Below, piece by piece: positions 2,947-53,116 of a stretch of 64,000 bases of DNA. The DNA is taken from IMG/VR virus record IMGVR_UViG_3300001687_001193. One strand, 5' to 3'. This DNA comes from a virus. Each line of letters begins with the position of its first letter. The first letter of the stretch is position 1. The position numbers were made by a program, and so were the translations under genes. Under the pieces are notes generated by a model, which saw only the letters and a list, made by a program, of their open reading frames with translations, was not told the origin of the DNA and searched no databases.

Positions 2947-3858
2947 ATGTCCATTAAAGATCCTGAAAAGCTTATCGGTCTCGTTACGGGGGCCATGAGA
3001 AAACAGGCCAAGGAGGCTCGCACCAACAAGGCAGAGATAGATATCTCTGGTGGCGTAGACAGCGCGGTAGTAGCCGCGCTTGCGTGCCGTGCATTTGGAC
3101 CTGAGAATGTAATCGGAGTATATAGCGACATTAATTCATCTCCAGAATCGCGGCGTAGAGCTAAACTAACTGCGCATACATTTGGTATTTATCTTATAAA
3201 TCTTGATCTCGGGGAAATATATAGTCTTATTGTTCAAGCCGTGAGGAATGAGTTCGACAAACTCGGACTAATATGGCCAAAGGAATCGGAAGATCCAACA
3301 GCCTTCGGTGGTCTCAGGAGTTGTCTTAGGGCACCAATAGGTAGGTTCGTCAACCGTATGTTTGGCGGTGGCATTAGACAAGGCACAGGGAACAGAGACG
3401 AGGACGAGTTGCTCCGGTTCTACCAGAAAGGCGGAGACGGCGAAGTAGACTGCAATTGGATTGGCGGTTTATTTAAGAGCGAAGTTTGGGAACTTGCCGA
3501 ATACCTGGGTGTGCCACAGGAGATAATTGATGCAACGCCGACCCCAGATTTGTGGGGAAGCGGCGACGCGCACAATGATGAGGATGAACTCAGGGAAATA
3601 ACAGGCGTCGAACTCACTTATGGTAGGCCCGGCAAGGAAACGGGGACCATCGAATGGGTAATTAGGGAAAACGATAAGTGTGGCATTATTACAGGCTACA
3701 ACAGCGAAAGGCGAGAAGACATCGAAGGCCTTTATACCCCTGAGCAATGGAAGGTTATCGAAGCCGTACGTAAGATGGAAAAAGCTACAAGGCATAAAGC
3801 TCAATTGCCGCCGATACTACATCGTGAAGCGCTACTAGTTGGAGGAGCAGTAGAATAA
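2947..3858 (+). CDS. nadE: NH3-dependent NAD+ synthetase
   Basis: PP-loop SGGVDS is present as DISGGVDSAVVAAL. The C-terminal block KGGDGEVDCNWIGGLFKSEVWELAEYLGVPQEII...PTPDLW...ELTYG parallels E. coli NadE [21 protein letters not shown]...APTADLEDD...LGVTY. Confidence 0.7.
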   Translation: MSIKDPEKLIGLVTGAMRKQAKEARTNKAEIDISGGVDSAVVAALACRAFGPENVIGVYSDINSSPESRRRAKLTAHTFGIYLINLDLGEIYSLIVQAVRNEFDKLGLIWPKESEDPTAFGGLRSCLRAPIGRFVNRMFGGGIRQGTGNRDEDELLRFYQKGGDGEVDCNWIGGLFKSEVWELAEYLGVPQEIIDATPTPDLWGSGDAHNDEDELREITGVELTYGRPGKETGTIEWVIRENDKCGIITGYNSERREDIEGLYTPEQWKVIEAVRKMEKATRHKAQLPPILHREALLVGGAVE

Positions 3859-4058: not shown

Positions 4059-4939
4059 AGTCGATACTCGACGAATTCGAATACGCTGCTGGTACTGTAA
4101 TAGGAACGTATCATACGCGGACGAACAAGAATAATCAAGACTCTTTTTTCTATTTTGAAGGCGACCATGTACTTGTGGGTGTGGTGTGTGACGGGTGCGG
4201 GAGCGGCGCCCACAGCGAGGTCGGTGCTAGCATCGGAGCGCCTGCTATCGCATGGGAGCTATCCGCCTGTGGGCTTGACAGAGTCGGGAATGAGCCGCAA
4301 AAACTTAAGGAGACGCTAGAGTGGGCTAAACATTTAATGGTAAAGCGTATCTCAAAGTGTGCCTTTAGAGTTGGTTTGCCGTTAGTCGAAGCTGTTAGTG
4401 AGTATTTCTTATTTACCGTGGTGGCAGTAGTCGTGGCCAGAGACTATACCTATGTCATCTCATTCGGAGATGGATTTTATGCTGTTAACCAGAAGCAAGT
4501 CCCGATAGGCCCGTTTGAGAACAATGCTCCACCATATATCGGCTATAATATCATAGCTGGCAAAGTGAATATAATGAGGGAGCATTTAGGCTTCGTTGTG
4601 AACGAAATAATTCCCACTTCCGAGTTGTCGAGCGTGATGATAGCAACGGACGGTATAGATGATTTCCTAGAATCCTCTGAGAAAAAGATCCCAGGAAAGG
4701 AAGAGTTGGTTGGCCCGGTTTCACAATTCTGGGATAAAGATCTATTTTTTAGCAACCCTGCGGCGCTAGAACGCCGTCTGTGTCTGATCAATAGAACAAC
4801 TAGTAGAGTCAACCGCACAACTAGAGCGTTGCAAATAGAGCGTGGATATCTTAAGGATGATACAACTATTTTAGTTATAAGGCGCAAGCAAGATGATAGT
4901 TTACCTGAGAGGGAAGAAACTAAGCCTGAGCCCGTCTAA
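4055..4939 (+). CDS. PP2C-family Ser/Thr protein phosphatase
   Basis: VGVVCDGCGSGAHSEVGA matches the PP2C DGHGG metal-binding motif. The later MIATDGIDD matches PP2C motif 8 (DG..D). Confidence 0.5.
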   Translation: MKSILDEFEYAAGTVIGTYHTRTNKNNQDSFFYFEGDHVLVGVVCDGCGSGAHSEVGASIGAPAIAWELSACGLDRVGNEPQKLKETLEWAKHLMVKRISKCAFRVGLPLVEAVSEYFLFTVVAVVVARDYTYVISFGDGFYAVNQKQVPIGPFENNAPPYIGYNIIAGKVNIMREHLGFVVNEIIPTSELSSVMIATDGIDDFLESSEKKIPGKEELVGPVSQFWDKDLFFSNPAALERRLCLINRTTSRVNRTTRALQIERGYLKDDTTILVIRRKQDDSLPEREETKPEPV

Positions 4940-6749
4940 GTCTATTGGGAAAGGCGGTGAGGCTGACATATTTGACATAGGGAATGGTCAAGTATTGAAA
5001 GTTTTCAAGCAGGCGAGCCATCCGGACTTCGCCGGCTTCAGACTCGAACAGCAAATGGCAGAAGCCAGATTACAAGAGCACCAGAAGAAACTTCCGGCTT
5101 TCCCCAAAGATTTGCCGCAACGCGTTGTTACACCTATCGATTTGGCGACAAACACAAAAGGCAAGACAATCTTGGGTTACTCCATGAAGTTTTTAAAAGG
5201 CTACGAAGTTTTACTAAAGTACGCCGACCGAAACTACAGACGAGCCGGCGTCAGCAACGACCTAGTAGTGAAGACCTTTATGGACCTACACGAGACGGTA
5301 AAGAGTATTCATAATAAAAACGTAGTCATTGGAGATTTCAACGATCTTAACATCATGGTAAAAAACGGGGAAGCATATATAATCGATGCTGACAGTTTTC
5401 AATTTGGCCCGTTTATGTGTAGAGTGTTTACCGAGAAATTTGTGGACCCCATGTTGTGTGATCCGAACGGGCCCAGGCCGATACTCGCCAAACTACATAC
5501 CCCGGATTCAGACTGGTATGCCTTTTCAGTAATGTTAATGCAATCTCTACTATTTGTAGGTCCATACGGTGGCATTTATAGGCCAAGCGATAAAAAGAAA
5601 AGGGTCAATCATGCTGTTAGACCCTTAAAGCGAATCACCGTATTTGATAATGAGGTGAAGTATCCTAAGCCAGCCGTACATTTTAGTGTCCTGCCGGACG
5701 ACTTGCTACAACACTTCCACCGTATATTTAAGGAAGATAGGCGCGGAGAGTTCCCCGACAATCTCTTGAATATTAAGTGGGTTGTTTGCACGAACTGTGG
5801 TATGGTACACGCCAGGAAGACTTGTCCAGGATGCGCCACATATACTCCGACGGCTGTTAAAGAAGTCATTAGAGGAAGGGTTACTTGTACTAGAGTGTTT
5901 CGTACATCTGGAATAATAGTGTTTGCCACAGTGCAAAACAATAGGCTGCGTTATCTATATCACGAAGGTGGAGAGTTTAAAAGAGAGGGCGGAATTCCTG
6001 TTATAAAGGGTAATATTAGACCAACGATGCGTTTTGGAATCCAGAGTAAATCAACATTAGTTGGCGAGAAAGGGTGCCTAGTAGTATTGTCGCCCGGAGC
6101 CACCGAGAAACTGGCAGTCGATAGCGTTGGGTCTCTGCCTTTGTTTGCTGCGAATGACAATAGATATTATTGGGTCACTGATGGCAGGTTGATGCGCAAC
6201 GGGCGCCTTGGGCCAAAACGTATAGGCGACGTTCTGTCTAACCAAACCCTGTTTTGGGTGGGATCACAATTCGGATTCGGTTTTTACCGCGCCGGCAATT
6301 TTAACGTCGGCTTTGTTTTTAATGCTGAGACTGGTGGTATTAACGACTCCGTGAAGCTTCCAGTTATTCCTGGCCAACTTGTTGATGCGACGTGTTACTT
6401 TGCTGGCAATTGGGCTTGGTTCATAGTATCTGTACGCGACAAAGGAAAGACCGTTAACAAATGCATGATCATCAAGTCAGACGGCAGCGTCAACGAATCG
6501 TTTGAGGCACACGATGGCGATGGATCATGGCTAGGATCTGCGAGAGGGAAGTGCGCCGCCGGGCGATTTCTGTTAGCCGCAACGGATGATGGTGTTGTTA
6601 GAGTGGAGCCGGATGGTGGCACGCTGTCTGTAGTTAAGGAATTCCCAGACACCGAGCCGTTTGTGGACTCAGGTTGTCATCTGTTTGCCAGCAACGCCGG
6701 GCTGTTCGTTGTATCTAGGAAAGAAGTTAGATCGCTGAAAATAGTGTGA
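4893..6749 (+). CDS. Ser/Thr protein kinase-like domain fused to a CxxC-CxxC Zn ribbon and a large C-terminal beta-rich domain
   Basis: Gly-loop IGKGGEADIF followed by VLKVFK (Lys). Catalytic-loop-like IHNKNVVIGDFNDLNIMV. DFG-like IIDADSFQF. Then CTNCGMVHARKTCPGC. Confidence 0.5.
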   Translation: MIVYLRGKKLSLSPSKSIGKGGEADIFDIGNGQVLKVFKQASHPDFAGFRLEQQMAEARLQEHQKKLPAFPKDLPQRVVTPIDLATNTKGKTILGYSMKFLKGYEVLLKYADRNYRRAGVSNDLVVKTFMDLHETVKSIHNKNVVIGDFNDLNIMVKNGEAYIIDADSFQFGPFMCRVFTEKFVDPMLCDPNGPRPILAKLHTPDSDWYAFSVMLMQSLLFVGPYGGIYRPSDKKKRVNHAVRPLKRITVFDNEVKYPKPAVHFSVLPDDLLQHFHRIFKEDRRGEFPDNLLNIKWVVCTNCGMVHARKTCPGCATYTPTAVKEVIRGRVTCTRVFRTSGIIVFATVQNNRLRYLYHEGGEFKREGGIPVIKGNIRPTMRFGIQSKSTLVGEKGCLVVLSPGATEKLAVDSVGSLPLFAANDNRYYWVTDGRLMRNGRLGPKRIGDVLSNQTLFWVGSQFGFGFYRAGNFNVGFVFNAETGGINDSVKLPVIPGQLVDATCYFAGNWAWFIVSVRDKGKTVNKCMIIKSDGSVNESFEAHDGDGSWLGSARGKCAAGRFLLAATDDGVVRVEPDGGTLSVVKEFPDTEPFVDSGCHLFASNAGLFVVSRKEVRSLKIV

Positions 6750-28409: not shown

Positions 28410-28605
28410 TTTTCGCAACAGCGCAGTTTGGATCAGAATATGGCTGGTCTCGTTTTTAATGTTCTCGATGTCAGCGCTATTGGCGCTCATCGGGGGCCAA
28501 ACCTTTGTACTGGGATATCTTATTAGTGGCGTGGTTCTAACAGCCTTTGGCGTGTTGCTTAACCTCGCTTGTTTACAATATTATAATAAAAGAAAGAATG
28601 AGTGA
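28381..28605 (+). CDS. small membrane protein
   Basis: Two hydrophobic helices. Confidence 0.3.
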   Translation: MTKLQRFLDSFRNSAVWIRIWLVSFLMFSMSALLALIGGQTFVLGYLISGVVLTAFGVLLNLACLQYYNKRKNE

Positions 28606-28870
28606 AAGTTTTTATCATATAACATTAAAATCTACAAATAAGAAGACAGGGCCGATAGCTGTGGTTACAAGTTCCTATGATACTTGTCCCGATACGTGTC
28701 CGTTTAAGAGGAATGGTTGTTATGCTGATGGAGGTCCTTTGAGGATTCATTGGGATAAGGTCAGTGACGGCACGAGAGGTATTTCCTTCCGTGAATTGCT
28801 GACTAAATTGCGGGAACTAGGGAATGAAGAAGAGAGTGAGGTTGTTCCAGGCAGGAGATCTGCCGGGTAA
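28598..28870 (+). CDS. hypothetical Cys-containing protein
   Basis: In-frame ATG at 28598. Contains CPDTCPF...CYADGG. Confidence 0.3.
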   Translation: MSESFYHITLKSTNKKTGPIAVVTSSYDTCPDTCPFKRNGCYADGGPLRIHWDKVSDGTRGISFRELLTKLRELGNEEESEVVPGRRSAG

Positions 28871-29303
28871 GAATAACAGAATAAATTTCAAACAGATAAA
28901 GCAATTAGTGAAAGCATTAAGAAATCTCGAAGCAATGGGGTATACCCACAAGCCGGTCGACGTAGGTAACAATGCAGAGGCCATAAAATACTGTAATGAC
29001 AACGGAGTTTGTATTAATCTAAGTGCCAATAACTTGGCACACGCCGATGAACTAATGGCTCTTGGGATAGGTCCTGTATCGGTGACATTAGAGAAGGACT
29101 CTCCGCTCAAGGGCGTGACCACTCCCGGTGGTCATAGAGTAGTTGTATGTCCAGCCGTAACGACCAACGGCAAGATTTCTTGTGCTACTTGTGGCGGTCG
29201 CAAGGGTGCTCTTTGCTACCGCATAAATAGAGATTATGTTATAGGCTTTCCGGCGCACGGCAGTTCTGTCAATAAGGCGTCCGAAATAGCCCGTGGAGAA
29301 TAG
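28824..29303 (+). CDS. hypothetical protein
   Basis: ORF overlapping the upstream gene. Confidence 0.35.
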   Translation: MKKRVRLFQAGDLPGKNNRINFKQIKQLVKALRNLEAMGYTHKPVDVGNNAEAIKYCNDNGVCINLSANNLAHADELMALGIGPVSVTLEKDSPLKGVTTPGGHRVVVCPAVTTNGKISCATCGGRKGALCYRINRDYVIGFPAHGSSVNKASEIARGE

Positions 29304-29312
29304 GGAGGAACT

Positions 29313-29648
29313 ATGTCTGACATCAATAGAAGTCAACATACATATGTTATTTTCGCCGAAAGGAAAGATTCGGAATTCGGCCAATTATATCAAATTATGC
29401 GTTGCAAGATTCTCGAAGCACATAGGGATCACTTTCTGGTGGAAAGTTTAAAAAGGTATAACAAGAAATACGCAGGTGCATCTAGAGCAACTAGTGGAAA
29501 ATATAAAGGTATGCCTGTTAGAAGAATCAACAAAGGACAAGCTTTCTGTATTGTTGATGAACAGACGGGGAAGTGTCTTAGTTGGGACACTGTCCGCCGT
29601 AGGGAAGGAACATCTGATGCTCCGGGCAGAGCCCGAGGCGGAAAGTAA
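29313..29648 (+). CDS. hypothetical protein
   Basis: ATG after GGAGG RBS. Confidence 0.35.
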   Translation: MSDINRSQHTYVIFAERKDSEFGQLYQIMRCKILEAHRDHFLVESLKRYNKKYAGASRATSGKYKGMPVRRINKGQAFCIVDEQTGKCLSWDTVRRREGTSDAPGRARGGK

Positions 29649-29718
29649 GAGGTTAAATCAATTTGCTCCAACTCGGTTGTTGGAGTAGGCCAAAGCCTTT
29701 ACCGGTAAGGAGGATAAA

Positions 29719-29901
29719 ATGGCTGAGACTAGAAAGTACCGTTTCAACGATGAGGAGATTGAAGCTTCCATCGACGAGCGTCCAGAAGACGTTCGTGCGG
29801 CATGGGCCGATGTACACCCTGGCCTCGAAAATGCGGACATTTTGACCGCTGAGGATGGTAGCATCGAGTTTCGTACTCGCGCTGGAACGAAGGGCGTCTA
29901 G
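29719..29901 (+). CDS. ThiS/MoaD-like beta-grasp ubiquitin-like protein (candidate Ubl of the downstream E2-JAB-E1 set)
   Basis: Strong TAAGGAGG RBS and strong terminator directly after. Start MAETRKYRFNDEEIEA parallels ThiS MQILFNDQ. C-terminus EDGSIEFRTRAGTKGV parallels ThiS DGDQILLFQVIAGG. Confidence 0.45.
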   Translation: MAETRKYRFNDEEIEASIDERPEDVRAAWADVHPGLENADILTAEDGSIEFRTRAGTKGV

Positions 29902-29920
29902 ATAGAGAGACGCTAGGAAT

Positions 29921-29958
29921 CCCCGCCCAGATTATCTGGGCGGGGAGTTTCTTTTTTG
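29921..29958 (+). terminator. rho-independent terminator
   Basis: CCCCGCCCAG-ATTAT-CTGGGCGGGG followed by AGTTTCTTTTTTGG. Confidence 0.8.
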
Positions 29959-29968
29959 GAGACGGCTT

Positions 29969-30223
29969 ATGAACGTAGAAAAGATGTTCGACCAATTAGT
30001 TCATGTGGATTTCTTCGACGAGAAGTGTCTAGAACTCTTAAATAAAATCATGGAGCTAGATAACCCCATGAAGTTCGACGACGCGTTTGCCTCTGACGAT
30101 GACCTCGACAAGCTAGAAGATGAATTAGAGAGACTCGAGACTAGGGCACCGCAGGCTGTGCGATTCAAGCAAATAGTGCATGGTTTAGCGCCATGTAAGG
30201 TTCCAGATTTACCTTTTATTTGA
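29969..30223 (+). CDS. hypothetical acidic protein
   Basis: ORF following the terminator. Confidence 0.35.
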   Translation: MNVEKMFDQLVHVDFFDEKCLELLNKIMELDNPMKFDDAFASDDDLDKLEDELERLETRAPQAVRFKQIVHGLAPCKVPDLPFI

Positions 30224-30227
30224 GGCA

Positions 30228-31016
30228 TTGTTGATGACTACGGACACAGACCAATTAGCTTTAACGAGCTTTCATTATAGACAAATAGATTTCCTTAGGC
30301 TATTTAAGCTCGCCAGACAACTCGGGGTTATAAAAAGAAAAAGGAAGATGCCTGTCGAGTACAAAGGTGAGGACGAAAAGGCATATACTAATGCCAGAAG
30401 TGCTTGTAGAAGGTTACTTAGAGAAGTGATTAAACACACATTTCCGGGATATGAGTTAAATAGTAACTGGAATCATTATTATGTACATATCCCTGACAAT
30501 ATTAGACGGGCCCTATCTTATCTGCGCCGAAATTATGGCCGGTTAGAGCGCCACAGCGATAGGAATGTGAGAGACGTGATCGCACATTATGGGTTGCTGG
30601 TGGAGCACATAGACAGTCATATATACCCAAGTTTTCCATATCAAATAAACATACATTTGTCCTCGTCACGGCGCGGTAGATATCGCAGAGCGATGAGGAG
30701 GGCTCGTGGCAGGGCAGGAGAAGAGACTCGCCCGTCAGAGAACTTTCACAAGTGTGCCTTGGCTTGTCTTGAATACAAAAAGTTATGGGATAGATATATA
30801 GGCGAAATCGTTGACGTAGCTGAAATACTACAGAAAGAAGATGCAACGCCAAAGCCGGCCAAGAAGAAAAAGGTTGCGGAGGTACCAAATTCAGAGACAG
30901 ATATCCGGGACGCTATAGATAGACACAGAGAAACGAGGGAGGAGAGAGTAAGAAATGCTCAGAACACCTTTGATCAAGCCCTTTCTAGATATAAAGATAG
31001 GAGAGGAATGGGATAA
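30228..31016 (+). CDS. hypothetical basic protein (C-terminus ...DRRGMG)
   Basis: ATGA overlap with the E2-like gene. No recognisable motif. Confidence 0.35.
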   Translation: MLMTTDTDQLALTSFHYRQIDFLRLFKLARQLGVIKRKRKMPVEYKGEDEKAYTNARSACRRLLREVIKHTFPGYELNSNWNHYYVHIPDNIRRALSYLRRNYGRLERHSDRNVRDVIAHYGLLVEHIDSHIYPSFPYQINIHLSSSRRGRYRRAMRRARGRAGEETRPSENFHKCALACLEYKKLWDRYIGEIVDVAEILQKEDATPKPAKKKKVAEVPNSETDIRDAIDRHRETREERVRNAQNTFDQALSRYKDRRGMG

Positions 31017-31705
31017 TGAACGCTGATAAGACTGATTTAGTGGTTAAAATAAAGGCCGGTGCATCCGATGCTCACGTCTCGTTGAACAAAGATGGCATTG
31101 TGCAACACAAGACAGTATCGTTGGAAGACCTGGTGGCGCAGTTGACAGCATCGCAAAAGCTATCGACCGGGGTTTTGCCTAGAAATACTAGGTTTTTCAA
31201 CGGCACGCCTGTTAAGTACCGCATTGGGTTAGAAACGATCGCAAGGACAAGGGACTTCGGTGTTTTCTCGCGCACTAGAGAAGAAGTGGGTGAGGGCAAA
31301 AAGGTATTAAGAATACCGTTCCCACCGTGCCTGTTTGTGTTCGATGTAACATCAGGTCAAATCAGCGCCACGAAAGTATTTGCGCTCAAACATCTCATAT
31401 CTAAGAAAACGGATCATTTATATAATTTTCCGTTTGGGAATGTGTACGGTGAGGGGAGGATATGCTGGGGACAAGCTAAGATGCTACCTATAAGGGCGCC
31501 TATGAACTTGATTAGCATGATTAGTGTATTTTTTGACTCGCCGTTTAATGGCGACTTAGTAAATGAAAGAACTTTTAGATCTCCTCCTGGCGAACGTATA
31601 CCCGACTTTTGGTCGCTTGTAAATTATTTAGATGGCAAGGAAGCGTTCCCAGATAACCTGCTGTATAAATCCGCAGTATCATTGAAAACTCTCATGAAGG
31701 AGTAG
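31016..31705 (+). CDS. ubiquitin-conjugating (E2/UBC)-like protein
   Basis: YNFPFGNVYGEGRICWGQAKM parallels the UBC active-site block HPNVxxxGRICLDIL, with the catalytic Cys in RICWG. Confidence 0.5.
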   Translation: MNADKTDLVVKIKAGASDAHVSLNKDGIVQHKTVSLEDLVAQLTASQKLSTGVLPRNTRFFNGTPVKYRIGLETIARTRDFGVFSRTREEVGEGKKVLRIPFPPCLFVFDVTSGQISATKVFALKHLISKKTDHLYNFPFGNVYGEGRICWGQAKMLPIRAPMNLISMISVFFDSPFNGDLVNERTFRSPPGERIPDFWSLVNYLDGKEAFPDNLLYKSAVSLKTLMKE

Positions 31706-31712
31706 TAGCGAG

Positions 31713-33686
31713 ATGTCTAGCAAGAAAGGCAACAAAACTGGCAAAAGTCACAAAAACAGTAAGAAGGGCCGCAAATCCAACAAGAAGGATGAGGACAAGG
31801 GTCGTGCTAAGGTAGTTAAGAGTAACAAGGTGCCTGAATCCGATGGCGGCAAAAACAAGATAGCTCTCCAAAAAATGCTCGTTGGACATTACATCGAAAA
31901 TATTCCGGCGGATTCCAAGAAAAAAGTTGTATACATTTGGCAAGGAGACGGAGTGTGGGAAGTTAGAAAGCTCAGGTTGGGCACGTTCACTAGCCGCATT
32001 CACGAATTCGATACTATTGGACTCGAAAGTAACCTTAAAGAAGGTTGGGTTTTAAACGTCCCCAAGATTCCTGCGTCTCTGTTAGACGTTACTCTGTCTT
32101 TCTTCAGGAAAATATACGACAAGCATTCCAGCGAGGTTTTCTTACAATTTTTCTATGATGAGAATAAAGAAGAATATCTGGTGCACTGCCCAAAACAGCA
32201 GGTGAGTGGCGCATCTGTGAAGTACGACAGGGACGAGAAGTTTGAAACCCCAGAGAAGATTCTTGTATTTGAGATTCACAGCCATGCAAGTATGCCGGCG
32301 TTCTTTTCTGGCACGGATGATGCCGATGAAAAAGACGACCGATTCTTCGGAGTTATCGGGAAGGTGAAAGAATTTTATCCCGAAATGAAATTGCGTTTGT
32401 CGGTAGGCGGGCGTAGGCGTGAGATAGACATAGGAGATATATTCGATCTAGACGAGAGCAGCTATAACGAGGAGTCTTTCCCAAAAGACTGGGTAAAAAG
32501 GATACAAAAGCAGAAGAAAGAGCCGAAGAGAGTAAGGACATGTAGAAGGGGGCCTCCATATAGGAAATATTATGGTAGGCCGCCAGGTTCAATATATGAT
32601 CCCCGTAGCCGTACACACTTCCCGGTTCCGACAGTTGATGACCCAGACTATCCTGGTGGCGGAGGCTTCCCGCCGCATAGCGCCATTTCTGGTCGTTCAG
32701 GCGGGTGCATTATGGCCGAGTCCACACCGCACCAGACCGAGATGTTTGATAAGGAGCTTAGATCTGTTGAACCGTACAGCGAAGAACACGAGTCTTCGTT
32801 CCCAGTGTGGCCTTATGCAGGCGACGATCCAGAAATGAAAAGACTGGCTGACAGATTAGGCCTACATGATCAGAAGTCTATAGAGAGACTGATGGAAAAT
32901 TTGGGTACCGACAGTGTAGAAGATGTAAATCATTACCTAGATCAAGTTGTCGCGCATCTGGATTCTGAGTCCGATGCTCCAGACGGAGATTACCAGGAGG
33001 AGTTGCTTGCATATCTAGGACTCACAGGTGAAGAAGTGTGGGAGACAACAAATCCAGAAGAAGAAAAGGATGATATAGAGTCTAAGTATGTACAATTGGG
33101 GGACAAATATTTTTACGTGACCAGGGAGTATGGCAGGACGGTTTACAGAGAGTTGAAAGAAGAAGAAGTTCCGGAGGATGATCCTGACCCTGACTGCGAA
33201 CTATGCGATGATTCGGGCTGGTTACGTGAGGGCGTCGTGTTGTGTAGCTGTGAAACCGGTCAATATATAAAAAGACAAAGAGCAGACAAGGAAAAACGTG
33301 AATTTGGCGGCAAGACTTACGCATCCATGCTTATTCATAAGCAGGATCTTACATCAGAACAGATCACCAATTTTGCAAACTCTCTGTCGAAGCTAGAGAC
33401 AGGATGTTCTGGGGTGGTTGGCCATCTAGATTTGCCCAGTGAACGTTGGAATGTTAGAGTATACGACGAGGTCATTACAGCCGATACTTACGACTATAAT
33501 GGGGAGATTGAGGTTTTTCTAGAGAAGCTCTCTATGCCAATGGAGAAAATCGGTATATATATTTGTCCCAACGTCTCAGTAGAAATGAAAGATGAGGCAG
33601 AGGAAGAAAGGGAAGCTGATGGCGAAGAAGACAGCGAAGACCCGAGGGAAGCAATCATCAGGGACTGGCGTGGCGTCAAGTGGTAG
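31713..33686 (+). CDS. JAB/MPN+ (JAMM) metallopeptidase-domain protein with Lys-rich N-terminus and C-terminal Cys-rich extension
   Basis: FEIHSHASMPAFFSGTDD is an exact H-x-H-x7-S-x2-D JAMM motif. The N-terminus is Lys-rich. The C-terminal extension carries CELCDDSGWLREGVVLCSCETG. Confidence 0.65.
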   Translation: MSSKKGNKTGKSHKNSKKGRKSNKKDEDKGRAKVVKSNKVPESDGGKNKIALQKMLVGHYIENIPADSKKKVVYIWQGDGVWEVRKLRLGTFTSRIHEFDTIGLESNLKEGWVLNVPKIPASLLDVTLSFFRKIYDKHSSEVFLQFFYDENKEEYLVHCPKQQVSGASVKYDRDEKFETPEKILVFEIHSHASMPAFFSGTDDADEKDDRFFGVIGKVKEFYPEMKLRLSVGGRRREIDIGDIFDLDESSYNEESFPKDWVKRIQKQKKEPKRVRTCRRGPPYRKYYGRPPGSIYDPRSRTHFPVPTVDDPDYPGGGGFPPHSAISGRSGGCIMAESTPHQTEMFDKELRSVEPYSEEHESSFPVWPYAGDDPEMKRLADRLGLHDQKSIERLMENLGTDSVEDVNHYLDQVVAHLDSESDAPDGDYQEELLAYLGLTGEEVWETTNPEEEKDDIESKYVQLGDKYFYVTREYGRTVYRELKEEEVPEDDPDPDCELCDDSGWLREGVVLCSCETGQYIKRQRADKEKREFGGKTYASMLIHKQDLTSEQITNFANSLSKLETGCSGVVGHLDLPSERWNVRVYDEVITADTYDYNGEIEVFLEKLSMPMEKIGIYICPNVSVEMKDEAEEEREADGEEDSEDPREAIIRDWRGVKW

Positions 33687-34632
33687 TGTCGCTGCTGCTA
33701 CAACCGCCGCACCGGCCAAGAAGTTAGAGCCCGTTATATCATTATCCGGGTATTCTAAAATCGACAACATACTAGTACTTGGATGTGGCGGGACCGGAGG
33801 ACACTTAGTCCCACATCTAGCACGTCTTGTTAGTGTGTTAAACTCGAAGCGGTCGCGCAGCGCATACGCTTCGTTGCCTGTAATGAATCTGTTTTTAGCC
33901 GATGGAGATGTGGTAGAAGAGAAGAATCTAATCAGGCAGAATTTTATAGAGCAGGACATAGGTAAAAACAAGGCTGAGGTGCTGGGAGAAAGATACGCTG
34001 CAGCCTTTGGTATCGAAATTGGCGTTATTCCCGAGTATTTAGAACGCCTCGACAAGTTCTCTTTTCTAAAAACAATGAGTAGAAGTTATGATAACGCGAG
34101 TCTTGTGATAGGCTGCGTCGATAATAATGCCTCTAGAAAAGTAATAAACAGGTGGTTCTGCAGGAAAGACACCGGCGGATCCGACGGTCGTTTTTGGATT
34201 GATTCTGGGAACGAAGAGAACTCGGGTCAAGTCGTGTGCGGATATAATCCGCAAGAATACAGGTACGGTCAGCCGAAATTTAACCCTTTCAGAAAGGATT
34301 TGCATAGTCTATCTTCGGGCCGCCGTCGTGGAGACTTTTGTTTGCCGTGTGCAGTAGAGGTATATCCGGAGTTACTCCATATCGACGATAGCTTTAGCTC
34401 TCAAGAGAGCTGCGCCGCAAGATCACAATCGGCGCCGCAGAATATGCAGACTAATGTTACGGCGGCTGTAATTATTATGAACTTTGTGCAGAAGTTAATT
34501 ACTAGAGACCTAATAAAATCGCACTGTGTAGAGTTTGCCATCAGTAATACATTTAATACTAGGTTAAATACTGTTAAGAATTTGGAGTGTGTAGCTAAGG
34601 GGCGGAGGAAAGACTGGGAGAAGTCACAATGA
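33619..34632 (+). CDS. E1-like ubiquitin-activating enzyme (ThiF/MoeB family); start 33619 (alternative 33592) overlaps the JAB gene 3' end in another frame
   Basis: ILVLGCGGTGGHLVPHLARL is the Rossmann GxGxxG of ThiF/E1. The C-terminal region has CLPC...C Cys residues. A GAGGAAGAAAGGGAAG RBS lies before the 33619 ATG. Confidence 0.6.
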   Translation: MAKKTAKTRGKQSSGTGVASSGSVAAATTAAPAKKLEPVISLSGYSKIDNILVLGCGGTGGHLVPHLARLVSVLNSKRSRSAYASLPVMNLFLADGDVVEEKNLIRQNFIEQDIGKNKAEVLGERYAAAFGIEIGVIPEYLERLDKFSFLKTMSRSYDNASLVIGCVDNNASRKVINRWFCRKDTGGSDGRFWIDSGNEENSGQVVCGYNPQEYRYGQPKFNPFRKDLHSLSSGRRRGDFCLPCAVEVYPELLHIDDSFSSQESCAARSQSAPQNMQTNVTAAVIIMNFVQKLITRDLIKSHCVEFAISNTFNTRLNTVKNLECVAKGRRKDWEKSQ

Positions 34633-35051
34633 TTAGACTGTTGGATATCAGAGATAACGAGAAGCCGCTGGCCACAGACGAGGAGTGTGAGGTTCGTAGA
34701 AGAATCTTGATCGCTACTGGAGTCATTAAGCCAGCATTAAAGTCCGAACTAATAGAGAGAAAAGATGGAACTGTTATTTTGTCTACGCGCAGAGATAGCC
34801 GTGCCAAAAGGGAACGGCTGATCGAGCAGGGCATAATAGATCCAACGTTATATCAGTTGAGTATAGACCCTAGTCCATACACGTCCGGAGGAGAGGGAGA
34901 ATATAATCCTAGATCCATAGAATCAGAGGAAGAATATGACCGGCGTAAGAGGGCATATTTTAGAATAATGCAAGAAATCTTGAAGTCTAGGAAAGATTTA
35001 AAACTGATACTCGGCAAGAAGAGCGACAAAGACCCGGAATGGTATTTCTAA
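34629..35051 (+). CDS. hypothetical protein
   Basis: ATGA overlap with the E1 gene. Confidence 0.35.
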   Translation: MIRLLDIRDNEKPLATDEECEVRRRILIATGVIKPALKSELIERKDGTVILSTRRDSRAKRERLIEQGIIDPTLYQLSIDPSPYTSGGEGEYNPRSIESEEEYDRRKRAYFRIMQEILKSRKDLKLILGKKSDKDPEWYF

Positions 35052-35063
35052 GGAAGGTGCTAT

Positions 35064-36467
35064 ATGCTGCGTGGGGATGGACTTAAAACGGACTTATACC
35101 AATTGACTATGATCGCCGCCAGCTATTTTGTTGGCGGCAGACATAACAATAAGGCTACTTGCGAAGCATTCGCTAGGAAACTGCCAGACTGCAGGAAATT
35201 CTTAGTGATGGCTGGCACAGAGCAAATTAGGGAGTACCTATCCAATTTACGTTTTACCGCTGACGACATTAAGTTTTTGAAGGAACATAAAGAGTTGAAA
35301 TCACTCATGTCTTCTTCTAGCTTCGATAAATATCTAGAAGATTTTAGGTTTTCCGGTGATTTGTGGGCGATGGCAGAGGGCGAAATTGTATTTGCCGGTG
35401 AGCCGTTGGTTAGGGTAACTGGGACACTGCCAGAGATACATATGGCAGAAACCTATGTGCTATCTGTATTGAATCATTCAATCCATGTGGCCTCTAAAGC
35501 GGCGAGGATGGTATTGGCCGCTCGCGGCGTGCCGCTACTTGAGTTCGGCACGAGGAGAACCCATCACGAGGCTGCCTTGGACTCTGCTAGAGCGGCATAT
35601 TTGGCGGGCTTTGCCGCCACGTCCAACTTGAGGGCATCTCAAAAATACGACATACCGAGTGCAGGTACAATGTCACATATGTGGATCATGTTAAGCGAGG
35701 ACGAAGATACAGCTTTCGCGCAGTTTGCTGAGGCGTATCATAATCCTACGCTTTTAATCGACACGTATGACACCATCGAGGGCGCCAAAAAGGCGATTAA
35801 AATTAAAGGGTTGAGCGCTGTAAGGCTCGACTCTGGGGATTTTGAGAGTCTATCTAGGGAAGTCAGAAAAGTACTCGATGACGGTGGCCGTCATACTACG
35901 AAGATCGTGGTATCTGGAGATATGAATGAATATAAGATAGCGGAGCTTATGTGCAGTGACCCGCGTAAAGGCTGTCCTAGTCGGGCTCCTATAGATATGT
36001 TTGGGGTGGGCACCGAGTTGGTAGTGCCAAAAGATATACATTCGTTAGGTATAGTATATAAAGCTGTATATAACGATACAAAGAATGAGCCGGTCATAAA
36101 GTTGGCGTCTGGCAAGGTTACAATGCCGGGGGCTAAGCAGGTATTTTTATCACAAAGAGATGATGGACATTGGGAACACTTAGTAGCACTTGACAATCCA
36201 GAATACTTGGACGACGAGATGAAGGGAATGGTTCCGTTGCTTGACTGTATTATTAGTAAAGGCAAAATATGTGAAGATAACGTCGTCGACTTGGAAGTAT
36301 CCAGAAAGTATTGCAATGCCGCCCTGATAAATATGCCACCGCATTTAGGCACATTGAGCTGTGACTTGGCGGCTCCAGTGCCAGTGCGCCCACATGAAAG
36401 TGTCACTAGATTATTCCAGGAGGCGTTCGAGAGTATTGGAGCAAAACATGGAACTAATATGGGGTAG
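35064..36467 (+). CDS. pncB: nicotinate phosphoribosyltransferase (NaPRTase family)
   Basis: N-terminal LKTDLYQLTM matches the NaPRTase signature. Length of 467 aa fits. Confidence 0.65.
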   Translation: MLRGDGLKTDLYQLTMIAASYFVGGRHNNKATCEAFARKLPDCRKFLVMAGTEQIREYLSNLRFTADDIKFLKEHKELKSLMSSSSFDKYLEDFRFSGDLWAMAEGEIVFAGEPLVRVTGTLPEIHMAETYVLSVLNHSIHVASKAARMVLAARGVPLLEFGTRRTHHEAALDSARAAYLAGFAATSNLRASQKYDIPSAGTMSHMWIMLSEDEDTAFAQFAEAYHNPTLLIDTYDTIEGAKKAIKIKGLSAVRLDSGDFESLSREVRKVLDDGGRHTTKIVVSGDMNEYKIAELMCSDPRKGCPSRAPIDMFGVGTELVVPKDIHSLGIVYKAVYNDTKNEPVIKLASGKVTMPGAKQVFLSQRDDGHWEHLVALDNPEYLDDEMKGMVPLLDCIISKGKICEDNVVDLEVSRKYCNAALINMPPHLGTLSCDLAAPVPVRPHESVTRLFQEAFESIGAKHGTNMG

Positions 36468-36771
36468 CGGAGGGGCCTCAGTATTTGACTTTTACTCTCT
36501 GCATCACGTTGTATGGTTTATAGCAATTACAACAGTGCTAACAGCCATTTTTAGGAAGTGGGCTTGGCTTGCGGTACTTGCGGTCGCGATCATGTGGGAG
36601 ATATTCGAGCATTGGGTTGCGGCTAACGTCCCTGGCTTCCCGTTCGCAGGGAAAGAAGCACTAATCAATAAATTTATAGGAGACGGCATAAGCGACATAG
36701 TGGGCTTTGTAATAGGCATGCTGTCAATTAGATCTATTAAAAACTGGTGGAAATATGGAGAACGAATCTAG
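36448..36771 (+). CDS. small membrane protein
   Basis: ATG after GGAG RBS. Three hydrophobic helices. Confidence 0.35.
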   Translation: MELIWGSGGASVFDFYSLHHVVWFIAITTVLTAIFRKWAWLAVLAVAIMWEIFEHWVAANVPGFPFAGKEALINKFIGDGISDIVGFVIGMLSIRSIKNWWKYGERI

Positions 36772-37051
36772 GAAACCGGCTTGGAAGAAAGATGCTGTCA
36801 AGCCGCAGCGCGAACCGCATATAGGGCCGCTGGAAGTCATCGTAAAGGATAATGACATCAACTACGCCCTAAAAATATTGAAGAATAAGATGTCGAAAGA
36901 AGGTGTCTTAACAGAATTAAAACGTAAAAGATTTGCCGAGAAGCCATCTGAAAAGAAGAGGCGCAAACACCGAGAAGCATTAAAGAAAATGCGAAAATCT
37001 CGTGGTAGGAAATCTAGATACAACCAATTTAGAAAGAAAAAGAACGACTAA
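36755..37051 (+). CDS. rpsU: 30S ribosomal protein S21 homologue
   Basis: EVIVKDNDINYALKILKNKMSKEGVLTELKRKRFAEKPSEKKRRKHREALKKMRK parallels E. coli S21 [44 protein letters not shown]. Confidence 0.55.
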   Translation: MENESRKPAWKKDAVKPQREPHIGPLEVIVKDNDINYALKILKNKMSKEGVLTELKRKRFAEKPSEKKRRKHREALKKMRKSRGRKSRYNQFRKKKND

Positions 37052-43701: not shown

Positions 43702-45318
43702 ATGTCAAGTAAACTAGTGAAGTACCATGAAGAGGCCCGCACCTCTATTATGGCAGGGGTTAGGAAGTTGGCGGATGCTGTTAGTGTTACTCTTGGTCCA
43801 AAAGGTAGACACGTTCTTATTAGAAGACAGTGGGGCTCGCCACAAGTCACGAGGGACGGCGTAACAATCGCAAAAGAAATATTTCTCAACGACCAATATG
43901 AGGACATGGGCGCGCAAATGGTAAAAGAGGCCGCGCAAACAACGGTAGACGAAGCTGGCGATGGCACCACAACCGCGACCGTTCTGGCAAGGTCTATATA
44001 TGAGGAAGGTCTTAAACTGTTAGCCGCCAGGTATAACCCAATGGATCTTAAGAGGGGTATCGATAAGGCGGTTGCAGCCGTAGTTGAGGAGCTTGACAAT
44101 ATCGCAAAGCCCACTCAAGACCCTTCCGACATCGCGAAAATTGGTACTATTAGCGCCAATGACAAGGGTATTGGCGAACTTTTGTCCCAGGCAATGGCGA
44201 AAGTGGGTAAAGATGGCGTTATTACTATTGAAGAATCCCAGAGCTTCAAAACATACTTAGACGTTACGGAAGGGATGCAATTTGACAGAGGTTACATAAC
44301 TCCATACTTTGTTACCAATGTGGAAAAGGTACAAGTGGAACTCGACGAATGTCTTATTCTACTACACGACGGCAAGTACGAGAACATTAAAGAAGTAGAA
44401 CCTTTACTTCAAGAAGTGTCTAGAGCTGGAAAGCCGCTATTGCTCATAGGAGAAGACTACGGCAAAAACTTTCTGGCTAACCTTATTATCAATAAGCAAC
44501 ATGGCACGCTTTTTAGTTGTCCTGTAAAGGCGCCGGGTTTCGGTGAACGCCGCAAAGAGATTCTCAAAGACTTAGCGATTCTTACTGGTGGGACAGTATT
44601 CTCTGAAGAAACCGGCATGACGTTCAAAAAAGCCGAGATGGAGCATCTTGGGGCCGCTAAGAGAGTAATTGTAGACCGTAATTCTACGACTATCGTAGAT
44701 GGCGGTGGCACAACCGAGGAACTTAAGGCTCGCATGAATCAAATAAGAGATGATATCAAGAATTGCGACAGTGACTACGACAAACGGACAATGAAAGAGC
44801 GCCTTGCGAAGCTTACCGGTGGTGTGGCTGTTATAAGAGTTGGAGCAGCTACCGAGCCAGAGCTTAAAGAGAAGAAGGACCGCGTGGAAGACGCTATGCA
44901 TGCTACGCGCGCCGCTGTAGAAGAAGGTATTGTGCCTGGTGGCGGAGTAGCTTTGCTGCGGTGTCGTAAAGCCGTAGAAGATATGATCGGCGTTATTCCT
45001 GATGCAGGAGAACAAGAAGGCGCGAAAATTATCTTTACAGTGCTCGATGCGCCATTGCGTACTATAGTTGAGAATGCTGGTGGTAAACCGGACATCGTAG
45101 TGAATGAGATTCTTGGACACGATACTCGGAGCGCTGGCTACGACGCTTCCCGTGGAATTTACTGTGACTTAGTAGAGGCTGGCATTATAGACCCGAAGAA
45201 GGTTGTCCGTTGCGCTCTAAAGAACGCGGCTAGTGTTGCCTCTATGCTTTTGACAACTGAAGCGTTGGTTGCCGATGATCCTGATGCTGGTGGTGCGGCG
45301 GAGCCAGGAGCGATGTAA
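43702..45318 (+). CDS. groEL: chaperonin GroEL (Cpn60)
   Basis: [31 protein letters not shown]...[15 protein letters not shown] with a Gly/Met-less C-terminus. Typical Cpn60 length and motifs. Confidence 0.85.

Positions 45319-50969: not shown

Positions 50970-53116
<2,147 letters not shown>

Follow-up and report, generated by a model that had tools for sequence, protein, structure and literature searches.

A predicted ubiquitin-like conjugation cassette of the PRTRC/'6D' family in a phage-like genome

What would a phage-like genome do with a full set of genes for ubiquitin-like conjugation, and to which of the known bacterial systems could such a set belong? Both questions are raised by a 64,000-nucleotide stretch of viral DNA (IMG/VR record IMGVR_UViG_3300001687_001193; hereafter the window), where positions 29719-34632 of the + strand encode a ubiquitin-like protein (Ubl), an E2, a JAMM/MPN+ peptidase (JAB) and a ThiF-type E1. 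A first-pass annotation, made from the sequence alone, had described a complete set of four open reading frames on one strand in the order Ubl-E2-JAB-E1. All four were found at the coordinates given there, on the + strand, with their order as described and their catalytic residues intact, and the phage-like nature that it gave to the genome (~460 kb) is borne out by the gene content. The core of four genes thus stood, but the limitation of the unit to them did not, as three conserved accessory genes also belong to it, namely g84 (84 aa), g262 (~260 aa) and g140 (140 aa). The neighbours of the cassette are Lon, DUF7227, NAPRT and bS21, and no structural genes flank it in the window.

Genes of the cassette and their predicted active sites

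The Ubl gene (29719-29901, + strand) encodes a protein of 60 aa of the PRTRC_C/Prok_Ub type, a minimal beta-grasp whose C-terminal tail is flexible; its end, ...RAGTKG-V, contains an invariant Lys58-Gly59. The earlier description of this protein as ThiS/MoaD-like is correct at the level of the fold, although not as family membership by sequence, since no PF02597 match was obtained. The strong ribosome-binding site and terminator noted at the gene are both present: a Shine-Dalgarno sequence, AAGGAGG (29707-29713, + strand), is read directly from the sequence 5 nt 5' of the ATG, with similar AGGAGG sites ahead of the Ubl gene in most relatives, and directly 3' of the gene lies a terminator-like hairpin followed by a T-run (29920-29956, + strand; 12-bp stem with 9 GC pairs). 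GC-rich hairpins of differing sequence occupy the same place in six related loci (L002, L005, L012, L013, L016 and L024) and in Bacillus phage WH1. This hairpin probably functions as an attenuator, raising the level of Ubl mRNA over that of the enzymes.

The E2 (31016-31705, + strand; 229 aa) is of the Prok-E2_D/PRTRC_B type and carries its predicted catalytic Cys150 (codon 31463-31465) within FPFGNVYGEGRICWG. The active-site block previously read as GRICWG is found as EGRICWGQA, and Cys150 is invariant among 18 orthologues. Together with a match to Prok-E2_D (PF14460) above the curated threshold (E 2.7e-11, 43.9 bits, cut-off 25), this conserved Cys points to membership of the UBC/E2 superfamily; a profile search of PDB sequences with the E2 returned no match. 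Downstream of the Cys, the motif is FNGDL, its Asp being typical of the window clade; a sister clade has His instead, as does canonical PRTRC_B. This replacement of a conserved His of the PRTRC family by Asp counts against conjugation as an explanation.

The JAB/MPN+ metallopeptidase, of the PRTRC_A type (31713-33686, + strand), runs from its Lys-rich N-terminus through a JAB-N domain (residues ~50-135) and the JAMM core, which holds Glu141 (32133-32135) and HSHx7SxxD (32277-32318), to a C-terminal extension (residues ~240-650). The HxHx7Sx2D motif reported at first pass is exactly HSHASMPAFFSGTD; both this stretch and E141 are invariant in 18 sequences (residues E141, H189, H191, S199 and D202), which yields the full JAMM pattern E...HxHx7Sx2D. 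Profile scores are 25.5 bits for Prok-JAB (cut-off 25) and E 3e-14 for PRTRC_A. Its unusual size, Lys-rich N-terminus and Cys-rich C-terminus had also been remarked upon correctly: the protein has 657 aa, its orthologues ranging from 250 to 657 aa, and the lineage-specific extension of ~400 aa, whose sequence has no Pfam match, includes a CxxC...CxC segment; a conserved DWRGVKW forms the tail of the protein.

The open reading frame of the E1, of the ThiF/PRTRC_ThiF type, spans 33592-34632 and matches ThiF (PF00899, E 3e-16) and PRTRC_ThiF (E 9e-35). The expected GxGxxG appears as GCGGTG (33781-33798), accompanied by the motifs ADGDxVExKNLxRQ, NKA and VDNNAxR, and the cysteine of an SCA motif (34411-34413), conserved in canonical PRTRC_ThiF, is the candidate catalytic residue. 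The gene caller placed the start at GTG 33670, with an overlap of 17 nt with JAB, but a conserved N-terminal motif, SSxTGxxxSG, is encoded upstream of this codon, which argues for a start at ATG 33619 or ATG 33592. The former is probably the true start, giving a gene at 33619-34632 (+ strand) that overlaps JAB by 68 nt; the alternatives are ATG 33592 (95 nt) and GTG 33670. The overlap of about 70-95 nt estimated earlier agrees with either ATG.

The two open reading frames between Ubl and E2, suggested at first pass as possible conserved partners, are indeed conserved and correspond to g84 and g262. The first (29969-30223, + strand) encodes a small acidic protein, conserved in 10 loci, with the motif PMxFDxxFA(S/T)D...LE and an invariant C-terminal ...FI. 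At the same position, Bacillus elements encode a small acidic protein ending in DFI, DFI or DYI, and canonical PRTRC_E proteins end in D-[LIM]-[FL] or ...DLPI; g84 itself gave no significant profile match and is possibly an accessory protein analogous to the acidic PRTRC_E. At the position of PRTRC_F lies g262 (30228-31016, + strand; ATG 30234 according to the gene caller), with the invariant motifs YRQxDFLRLF...RKRKMP...RPxExFYxCAxAC; its distant relatives gave no PRTRC_F match. Directly 3' of the E1, in 27 loci, lies the conserved g140 (34629-35051, + strand), which has no family match and carries ATDEEC, two copies of LIxxG(I/V)IxP, EEGxY...RKxxYF and a tail P(E/D)W(Y/F)F. The stop codon of g262 overlaps the E2 start (TAATG) and the start codon of g140 overlaps the E1 stop (ATGA), overlaps that suggest translational coupling. 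Compared with the PRTRC_E and PRTRC_F profiles, g84, g262, g140 and g111 all remained below 2% probability, and no cassette protein matched PF14456 or PF19556; the likeness of the accessory proteins to PRTRC E and F is one of position and C-terminal motif only.

Conservation of the locus and tandem Ubl genes

At least 16 distinct loci share the gene order of the cassette, the majority on metagenomic contigs of 90-450 kb; cultured jumbo phages of Bacillus and a B. thuringiensis plasmid of 235 kb have it too. Its position between Lon and NAPRT is fixed and syntenic at E1 identities down to 45%, a phage-encoded Lon protease always lying ~2 kb upstream in the huge-phage clade, and in the Bacillus jumbo phages it also occupies a conserved place. 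More generally, the carriers of the PRTRC family are almost exclusively invading DNA (ICEs, plasmids, and temperate and jumbo phages). The Ubl gene shows a dN/dS of 0.14 against the orthologue in L005; elsewhere, at 52-73% amino-acid identity, synonymous sites are saturated.

The ...KGV end of the Ubl had led the first-pass annotation to expect either processing by the JAB protein or a non-canonical end, and the former is strongly backed by comparative data. Among the Ubl orthologues, 21 end in KG or in KG plus one residue, and canonical PRTRC_C proteins have extensions of up to ~60 aa beyond GTKG. Although the window Ubl gene is single-copy, relatives encode head-to-tail copies, with n = 2 (di-Ubl genes in L018 and L020), 4 (tetra-Ubl in vB_BauM_KLEB27-3 and in plasmid pBTHD789-2) or 5 (penta-Ubl in Bacillus phage vB_BceM_WH1), each repeat ending in (A/V)G(T/V)KG. 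Such a layout, reminiscent of polyubiquitin, speaks for a cut after Gly, and the ...GTKG end retained by every tandem copy implies that monomers are released. As in eukaryotic polyubiquitin, the 2-5 copies are near-identical and followed by a short C-terminal cap that needs removal; however, the sequences are unrelated beyond the fold and the junction is KG| and not GG|.

Relationship to PRTRC and other ubiquitin-like systems

Profile comparisons place the cassette within the PRTRC family (ParB-related, ThiF-related cassette; TIGR03735-03738; Pfam Prok_Ub, Prok-E2_D and Prok-JAB), and not within Bil or CBASS. PRTRC is the operon that Iyer, Burroughs and Aravind (2006; PMC1779556) designated '6D', and it differs from both 6C (Type II Bil) and 6E (Bub). 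Each of the four core proteins is homologous to its PRTRC counterpart (C, B, A or ThiF), with invariant catalytic residues, a conserved module order and purifying selection. In NCBIfam, these PRTRC families are the best or only match for each protein, and comparison by hhalign with alignments built from phage Dina and 41 canonical PRTRC loci of bacteria gave probabilities of 100% for the E1 (E 6e-48), 99.8% for JAB (1e-27), 98.5% for the E2 (2e-15) and 94.6% for the Ubl (7e-8). All four proteins score below the curated NCBIfam cut-offs (A, 53 vs 101.8; B, 39.2 vs 131.45; C, 12.8 vs 45.95; ThiF, 120.1 vs 144.75), as would be expected of diverged PRTRC relatives and not of equivalogs.

The likeness to PRTRC extends to the order Ubl-middle protein-E2-JAB-E1, which matches the annotated E-C-F-B-A-ThiF of Ralstonia phage Dina, to the GTKG end of the Ubl, to an E2 Cys within ICxG, to the JAB-N domain of the JAB, in which an Arg is conserved alongside an aromatic residue, and to the location on mobile DNA. 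In contrast, PRTRC_E and PRTRC_F (alpha-hel2, PF14456) are undetectable, g84, g262 and g140 being present instead; the E2 of the window clade has Asp for the downstream His; the window JAB bears its 400-aa extension; and the element is phage-like, not a plasmid or an ICE. No ParB-like protein was found among the part of the window's open reading frames scanned against family libraries, and the literature searched contained no demonstration of a biochemical step for any PRTRC-type system.

The similarity to Bil operons (Type I and Type II; BilA Ubl, BilB E2, BilC JAB, BilD E1) proposed at first pass holds for the gene order but not for the sequence families, as none of BilA-D was matched. The expected chemistry is the same, including a conserved Gly followed by a few residues removed by the JAB (Chambers et al.), whereas the window Ubl consists of one minimal beta-grasp of 60 aa, three additional accessory genes accompany the core, and Bil is a chromosomal defence system while this cassette is encoded by an invading element. 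Assignment to CBASS type II was not upheld. Although E1, E2 and JAB chemistry is shared, Cap2 unites E2 and E1 in one fusion protein and conjugates a CD-NTase, without a free Ubl, and here E1 and E2 are separate, with JAB between them, and a dedicated Ubl is encoded. PADLOC returned only weak Cap2-type matches for the E1 (best E 1e-6) and none for the E2, JAB and Ubl, and the seven cassette proteins gave no CD-NTase or effector match. The phage lambda/T1 pair TAPI (Ubl) and TAPK (JAB plus NlpC/P60) likewise combines a phage Ubl with a C-terminal Gly and a JAB, but has neither E1 nor E2 and is located among tail genes. Bub operons ('6E', DUF6527) also combine Ubl, E1, E2 and peptidase in bacteria, and their Ubls may hold several beta-grasp domains; they nevertheless belong to other sequence families, and in the PRTRC-like relatives each tandem copy ends in ...GTKG. 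To our knowledge, the multi-domain Ubls of Bub and Bil have not been reported as cut into monomers.

A search of the PDB with the E1 profile returned ThiF and MccB and not BilD. The ThiF/MoeB equivalogs score 17-37 bits on the E1, far from their cut-offs of 152-450 (ThiF, 37 with a cut-off of 275; MoeB, 17 with a cut-off of 449), compared with 120 bits for PRTRC_ThiF. A thiamine or molybdopterin context, which would have spoken for a sulfur-carrier pathway, is missing, with no rhodanese, cysteine desulfurase or thiamine/Moco gene near the cassette. A ThiS/ThiF or MoaD/MoeB pair was rejected on these sub-cut-off scores, the lack of a ThiS Pfam match for the Ubl and the absence of such neighbours.

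Possible roles during infection

We consider it fairly probable that this is a phage-borne PRTRC/'6D' conjugation cassette acting on host or phage proteins for takeover or counter-defence. The Ubl would be produced in excess, owing to its strong ribosome-binding site and the hairpin attenuator 3' of the gene, and the JAMM peptidase would remove Val60 after the invariant Lys58-Gly59 and, in relatives, also split poly-Ubl precursors into single units. With ATP, the E1 would adenylate Gly59 and form a thioester, probably on the conserved SCA cysteine, after which the Ubl would be handed on to Cys150 of the E2 and joined to lysine residues of its targets. As partners specific to this clade, g84, g262 and g140 may act as specificity factors, regulators or substrates, and JAB may also reverse the modification. 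Neither an E3 nor a target for the Ubl was identified. The most likely role, given occurrence almost only on invading DNA and the fixed syntenic place, is to modify proteins of host or phage in the course of infection, in the service of takeover or counter-defence, an optional defence island being less likely; the evidence for this role is that of distribution and synteny.

Phage-carried defence or superinfection exclusion, by which Bil-like tagging of proteins of competing phages or plasmids would block assembly, is consistent with the shared gene order and chemistry of Bil, which tags a phage tail protein, with the frequent carriage of defence systems by mobile elements and with the addiction or anti-invader role that Iyer et al. 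proposed for such mobile operons. It is nevertheless unlikely, as the cassette keeps its Lon-NAPRT position over deep divergence and does not lie in a variable island, has a conserved place in jumbo Bacillus phages too, and encodes an E2, a JAB and a Ubl unmatched by PADLOC. An aid to virion assembly in the style of lambda TAPI/TAPK, in which the Ubl would chaperone tail or capsid parts and be cleaved instead of serving as a general modifier, seems very unlikely: a chaperone that is merely cleaved needs neither E1 nor E2, and the cassette has no flanking structural genes. Iyer et al. 2006 did report the pairing of Ubl and JAB in phage tail assembly, and the penta-Ubl of WH1 is labelled 'virion structural protein' in GenBank, although no supporting paper for this label was found in the literature searched; E1 and E2-like proteins were also detected in a virion preparation of Salmonella phage Arash, but that 'structural' proteome comprises 116 proteins, including ribonucleotide reductases, and is therefore not specific. 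Most improbable is a sulfur-carrier or C-terminal modification pathway (ThiS/ThiF, MoaD/MoeB or MccB type) yielding a thiocarboxylate or peptide-nucleotide product and no conjugate, against which stand the constant presence of a JAMM peptidase and an E2 with an invariant Cys, the lack of sulfur-pathway genes nearby, equivalog scores far below that of PRTRC_ThiF, and the poly-Ubl genes, hard to reconcile with a sulfur carrier.

Beyond the favoured role in takeover or counter-defence, a bolder and decidedly unlikely proposal is that huge phages and Bacillus jumbo phages run a Ubl tagging system of their own, with polyubiquitin-type precursors, that marks host or phage proteins in infected cells, and that, in the huge-phage clade, tagged proteins are perhaps directed to Lon. 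If true, this would represent a viral analogue of tag-and-degrade proteolysis inside bacteria. Cultured Bacillus phages carry the same gene set, which makes its function open to experiment.

Gene content and affiliation of the cassette

The four ORFs that the first-pass annotation had read as a ubiquitin-like protein (Ubl), an E2, a JAB peptidase and an E1 are all present where it had placed them. The Ubl ORF (29719-29901, + strand; 60 aa; MAETRKYRFNDEEIEASIDERPEDVRAAWADVHPGLENADILTAEDGSIEFRTRAGTKGV) is preceded at 5 nt by an AAGGAGG site, and followed by a 12-bp GC-rich hairpin and then a T-run (29920-29956). Among the other three, the 229-aa ORF matches Pfam Prok-E2_D above the gathering score and includes Cys150 within an EGRICWGQA block, the 657-aa ORF has a Prok-JAB match and contains both HSHASMPAFFSGTD and an upstream Glu141, and the last ORF matches ThiF and contains GCGGTG. 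The genes of the region all lie on the + strand, and the GC skew of the window is uniformly positive. The cassette unit exceeds these four genes. The two ORFs between Ubl and E2, which encode accessory proteins of 84 and ~260 aa (g84 and g262) and had been flagged as possible conserved partners, are indeed kept in 10 distinct loci, including the window. Moreover, g262 and E2 overlap at their stop and start codons (TAATG), as do E1 and the gene for a further accessory protein of ~140 aa (g140; ATGA). In a sister clade (six loci), the gap between Ubl and E2 instead holds two unrelated small genes.

According to NCBIfam, the best or only matches of the four proteins are PRTRC (ParB-related, ThiF-related cassette) system proteins C (Ubl), B (E2) and A (JAB) and PRTRC ThiF (E1), all with scores under the curated cut-offs (120 bits against a cut-off of 145 in the case of the E1). 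For comparison, 41 loci of canonical PRTRC type were taken from genomes of Burkholderiales and their relatives, together with the cassette that is annotated in Ralstonia phage Dina (order E-C-F-B-A-ThiF). Profile-profile matches to canonical PRTRC proteins were obtained for the E1 (probability 100%, E 6e-48), JAB (99.8%, E 1e-27), E2 (98.5%, E 2e-15) and Ubl (94.6%, E 7e-8), and the alignments of phage and canonical proteins have in common the Ubl end ...GTKG, the E2 motif FNVW/Y..G.IC.G and the SCA cysteine of the E1. At the sequence level, the window cassette is assigned to operon type '6d', the fourth described by Iyer, Burroughs and Aravind (2006; PMC1779556). Operons of this type encode a small Ubl whose C-terminal residue is Gly, an alpha-helical protein and an E1, as well as an E2-like protein in which a Cys is followed downstream by a His and a JAB that has JAB-N as its N-terminal domain. 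The cassette belongs neither to 6C (now Type II Bil) nor to 6E (now Bub). PADLOC returned no match for Ubl, E2 or JAB and only weak Cap2-type matches for the E1. The earlier comparison with Bil and type II CBASS thus applies to the arrangement of the genes and the chemistry to be expected of them, and fails for family membership. PHROGs was of no use for the cassette proteins, and a blastn search of 50,697 phage records returned no match to the region. In archaeal jumbo extrachromosomal elements, the ThiF that has been reported is unrelated, a lone ThiF paired with host SAMPs. In the PDB, sequence searches that used the profiles of Ubl, E2 and JAB retrieved no relative.

Across 18 E2 sequences, Cys150, Trp151 and Gly152 are invariant; the downstream His is found in the sister clade (FSGHL) and in canonical PRTRC_B (THPN), and the window's clade has an Asp (FNGDL). 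The JAMM residues of the JAB are all invariant, and its JAB-N domain retains the Arg and an aromatic residue. JAB length ranges from 250 to 657 aa across relatives, the window version being the longest; as previously remarked of this unusually large protein, it has a Lys-rich head and a Cys-rich C-terminal part (a CxxC...CxC segment); further features are a linker rich in Pro and Gly, an acidic region and DWRGVKW as a conserved tail. Its C-terminal 418 aa have no Pfam match. The E1 contains the invariant motifs GCGGTG, ADGDxVExKNLxRQxF, NKA and VDNNAxR and two invariant cysteines, of which only the SCA one (34411-34413) is common to canonical PRTRC_ThiF. The gene caller's GTG start for the E1 (33670) is probably too late, since an SSxTGxxxSG motif 5' of it is conserved in several E1 orthologues. 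Translation would rather start at ATG 33619 or 33592, which gives an overlap with the JAB gene of 68 or 95 nt, respectively, in agreement with the 70-95 nt estimated before.

The Ubl as a probable glycine-ended modifier

In 21 Ubl orthologues, Tyr7, Val25, Trp29, Ala39, Asp46-Gly47, Phe51 and Lys58-Gly59 are invariant, and the proteins end at Gly or one residue beyond (V, N, Q, A or L). Several relatives encode polyubiquitin-like precursors. Five Ubl copies are found in gp211 of Bacillus phage vB_BceM_WH1 (L010:826-1725), annotated as 'virion structural protein', four copies in gp199 of vB_BauM_KLEB27-3 (L092:1796-2503) and in plasmid pBTHD789-2 of B. thuringiensis HD-789 (L135:1463-2212), and two copies in each of two other relative loci (L018:690-1037 and L020:3535-3885). 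Every head-to-tail copy ends in (A/V)G(T/V)KG, and in the Bacillus genes the last copy bears a short C-terminal cap. This layout, the same as that of eukaryotic-type polyubiquitin genes, is the strongest evidence that the small protein may act as a cleaved, Gly-ended modifier. Tandem, Gly-ended copies require a peptidase that cuts after Gly, and the neighbouring JAMM enzyme is the candidate that suggests itself; in Type II Bil, BilC has been experimentally shown in this role. Canonical PRTRC_C proteins extend from zero to ~60 residues beyond GTKG.

A GC-rich hairpin of varying sequence lies 3' of the Ubl gene in eight lineages, consistent with the production of more modifier than enzyme. Against the closest relative, the dN/dS of the Ubl is 0.14, and the other cassette genes are saturated at synonymous sites, with amino-acid identities of 52-73%. 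Upstream of the Ubl, at a distance of 0-2 kb, the huge-phage clade contains a highly conserved gene for a 111-aa protein (g111; 29313-29648, +) whose invariant C-terminus, REGxxxxPGRxRGGK, presents a ubiquitin-like 'RGG' with one Lys at the end. It has no match in Pfam, NCBIfam, PHROGs or the PRTRC profiles, and could be either a second modifier or an RNA-binding protein.

Distribution and accessory proteins

In a clade of huge phages, this diverged cassette of PRTRC type is a fixed component. Relatives of its E1 number 611 in the protein collection; for many of them the JGI label is 'PRTRC genetic system ThiF family protein', and many come from contigs of 140-460 kb (the contig of the window has ~460.9 kb). 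In loci fetched from ENA, NCBI and JGI, the recurring order is Lon ... Ubl, 84 aa, ~260 aa, E2, JAB, E1, ~140 aa, nicotinate phosphoribosyltransferase (NAPRT) and bS21; it is complete in 10 distinct loci including the window, while the six loci of the sister clade retain Ubl ... E2-JAB-E1-g140. An IMG/VR scan with a single protein found only four UViGs, which are distant, of 170 kb and with a rearranged cassette. That the source element is phage-like is well supported by its gene content, if not proven from the window: besides Lon, bS21 and NAPRT, it encodes a GroEL-like chaperonin, NAD synthase, an RNA ligase, a PurZ/PurA-type synthetase and a major-vault-protein-like protein, all typical of huge phages. 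No capsid or terminase match was found among the scanned window ORFs.

Beyond this clade, carriers of the PRTRC/6D family include plasmids (536 plasmid records contain an E1 relative), ICEs and phages. Jumbo phages of Bacillus that are in culture carry relatives of the cassette, with 37-39% E1 identity, and others are found in Salmonella phage Arash, Vibrio phages, Ralstonia phage Dina and IMG/VR contigs. A separate clade of six contigs from termite-gut and other gut metagenomes (L044, L066, L072, L074, L075 and L079), with ~37% E1 identity, has JAB and E1 adjacent and the E2 ~4 kb downstream; Ubl profiles detected no Ubl in these loci.

The huge-phage cassette has its own accessory proteins. 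The g262 family carries an invariant signature (YRQxDFLRLF...RKRKMP...RPxExFYxCAxAC), its structural model is confident (pLDDT 84) and has no meaningful PDB neighbour, and the family is small, at 70 clusters out of 1.84 billion representatives, none of them tied to PRTRC_F. Identity of g262 with PRTRC_F was rejected at the sequence level, as was that of g84, g111 and g140 with PRTRC_E or PRTRC_F. The acidic g84 always ends in FI, and g140 in P(E/D)W(Y/F)F. In the position of g84, Bacillus elements encode a small acidic protein ending in DFI, DFI or DYI, and canonical PRTRC_E is likewise acidic with a D-[LIM]-[FL] C-terminus, which suggests, short of proof, that the acidic proteins in this position are analogous to PRTRC_E.

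Possible roles and neighbouring genes

From what is established about catalysis in the E1, UBC and JAMM superfamilies, and with the catalytic residues intact, the cassette can be read as a conjugation system. The JAB would trim the Ubl, the E1 would adenylate it and form a thioester, and transfer to a thioester on the E2 would lead to an isopeptide bond, which the JAB could also reverse. As for its purpose, the favoured reading is that it serves the infection cycle of the element itself, for example by taking over the host, countering defence or controlling the element's proteins, as the family is distributed over plasmids, ICEs and phages and the cassette forms, in the huge-phage clade, a fixed syntenic block and not a variable island. 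Three rivals are less favoured: an exclusion system of the Bil kind, a pathway of sulfur carriers and an assembly aid in the manner of lambda TAPI.

To our knowledge, the only bacterial systems in which Ubl conjugation has been shown are those of host defence (CBASS II, Bil and Bub). The PRTRC/6D family resides on invading DNA. The family, and its occurrence in some phage records, can already be read from database annotation, namely the JGI PRTRC names for E1s, the RefSeq record of phage Dina and a 'PRTRC_A domain' note in KLEB27-3. The literature searched contains no functional study of PRTRC, of its Pfam families (PF14460/PF14454), of phage Ubl systems or of vB_BceM_WH1, and does not describe huge and jumbo phages as having the family for a conserved core module, nor its clade-specific accessory genes, polyubiquitin-like precursors or any function; a 2021 comparative genomic survey of jumbo phages and a 2026 jumbo-phage review leave such Ubl systems unmentioned. 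There are cultured carriers (Bacillus phages vB_BceM_WH1, vB_BauM_KLEB27-3 and Edson, and plasmid pBTHD789-2), which make PRTRC-type function, and the use by a mobile element of its own ubiquitin-like system, directly testable.

In Salmonella phage Arash (L093), the E1, JAB and E2 homologues gp246c-gp248c are annotated as 'structural protein' or 'hypothetical', and mass spectrometry of a virion preparation, which also contained many enzymes, picked up the E1 and E2. This proteome was set aside as evidence of packaging, as it lists 116 proteins, many of them enzymes. Across the huge-phage clade, a full-length Lon gene (25154-27514, + in the window) precedes the cassette by ~2 kb, and no Lon annotation appears in the regions of 13-15 kb inspected around the cassette in Bacillus elements or phage Dina; a functional tie between the two is speculation. 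In one relative (L005:1-3082), the Lon gene encodes 1139 aa with a LAGLIDADG match, which suggests an intein-like insertion.

Several other genes of the window deserve mention. Two overlapping ORFs that differ in frame (28547-28870 and 28824-29303, +) make up a split DUF7227 gene, covering residues 8-89 and 91-245 of an intact 247-aa orthologue (L012); the gene could be a pseudogene, or the split could come from a frameshift or from an error of assembly. The NAPRT gene (35064-36467, +) lies directly 3' of the cassette in nearly all relatives and, with the NAD synthase (2947-3858, +), makes up the NAD-salvage genes; in Bacillus phage WH1, the E1 is followed by a gene for a NADAR family protein. 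The bS21 homologue (36755-37051, +; PF01165, E 2.5e-16) keeps its position relative to the cassette in related contigs. Elsewhere are found a GroEL-type chaperonin (43702-45318, +; Cpn60_TCP1, E 5e-66), an 824-aa protein (17274-19748, +) with major-vault-protein shoulder (E 6e-20) and vault repeat domains, and a 618-aa protein (4893-6749, +) with a weak protein-kinase match (E 3e-4). Finally, a 424-aa protein (51027-52301, +) matches phrog_1211, '2-aminooxy adenylosuccinate synthetase' (PurZ/PurA type; E 1e-114), and may point to a 2-aminoadenine (Z-base) genome or represent a plain PurA homologue.
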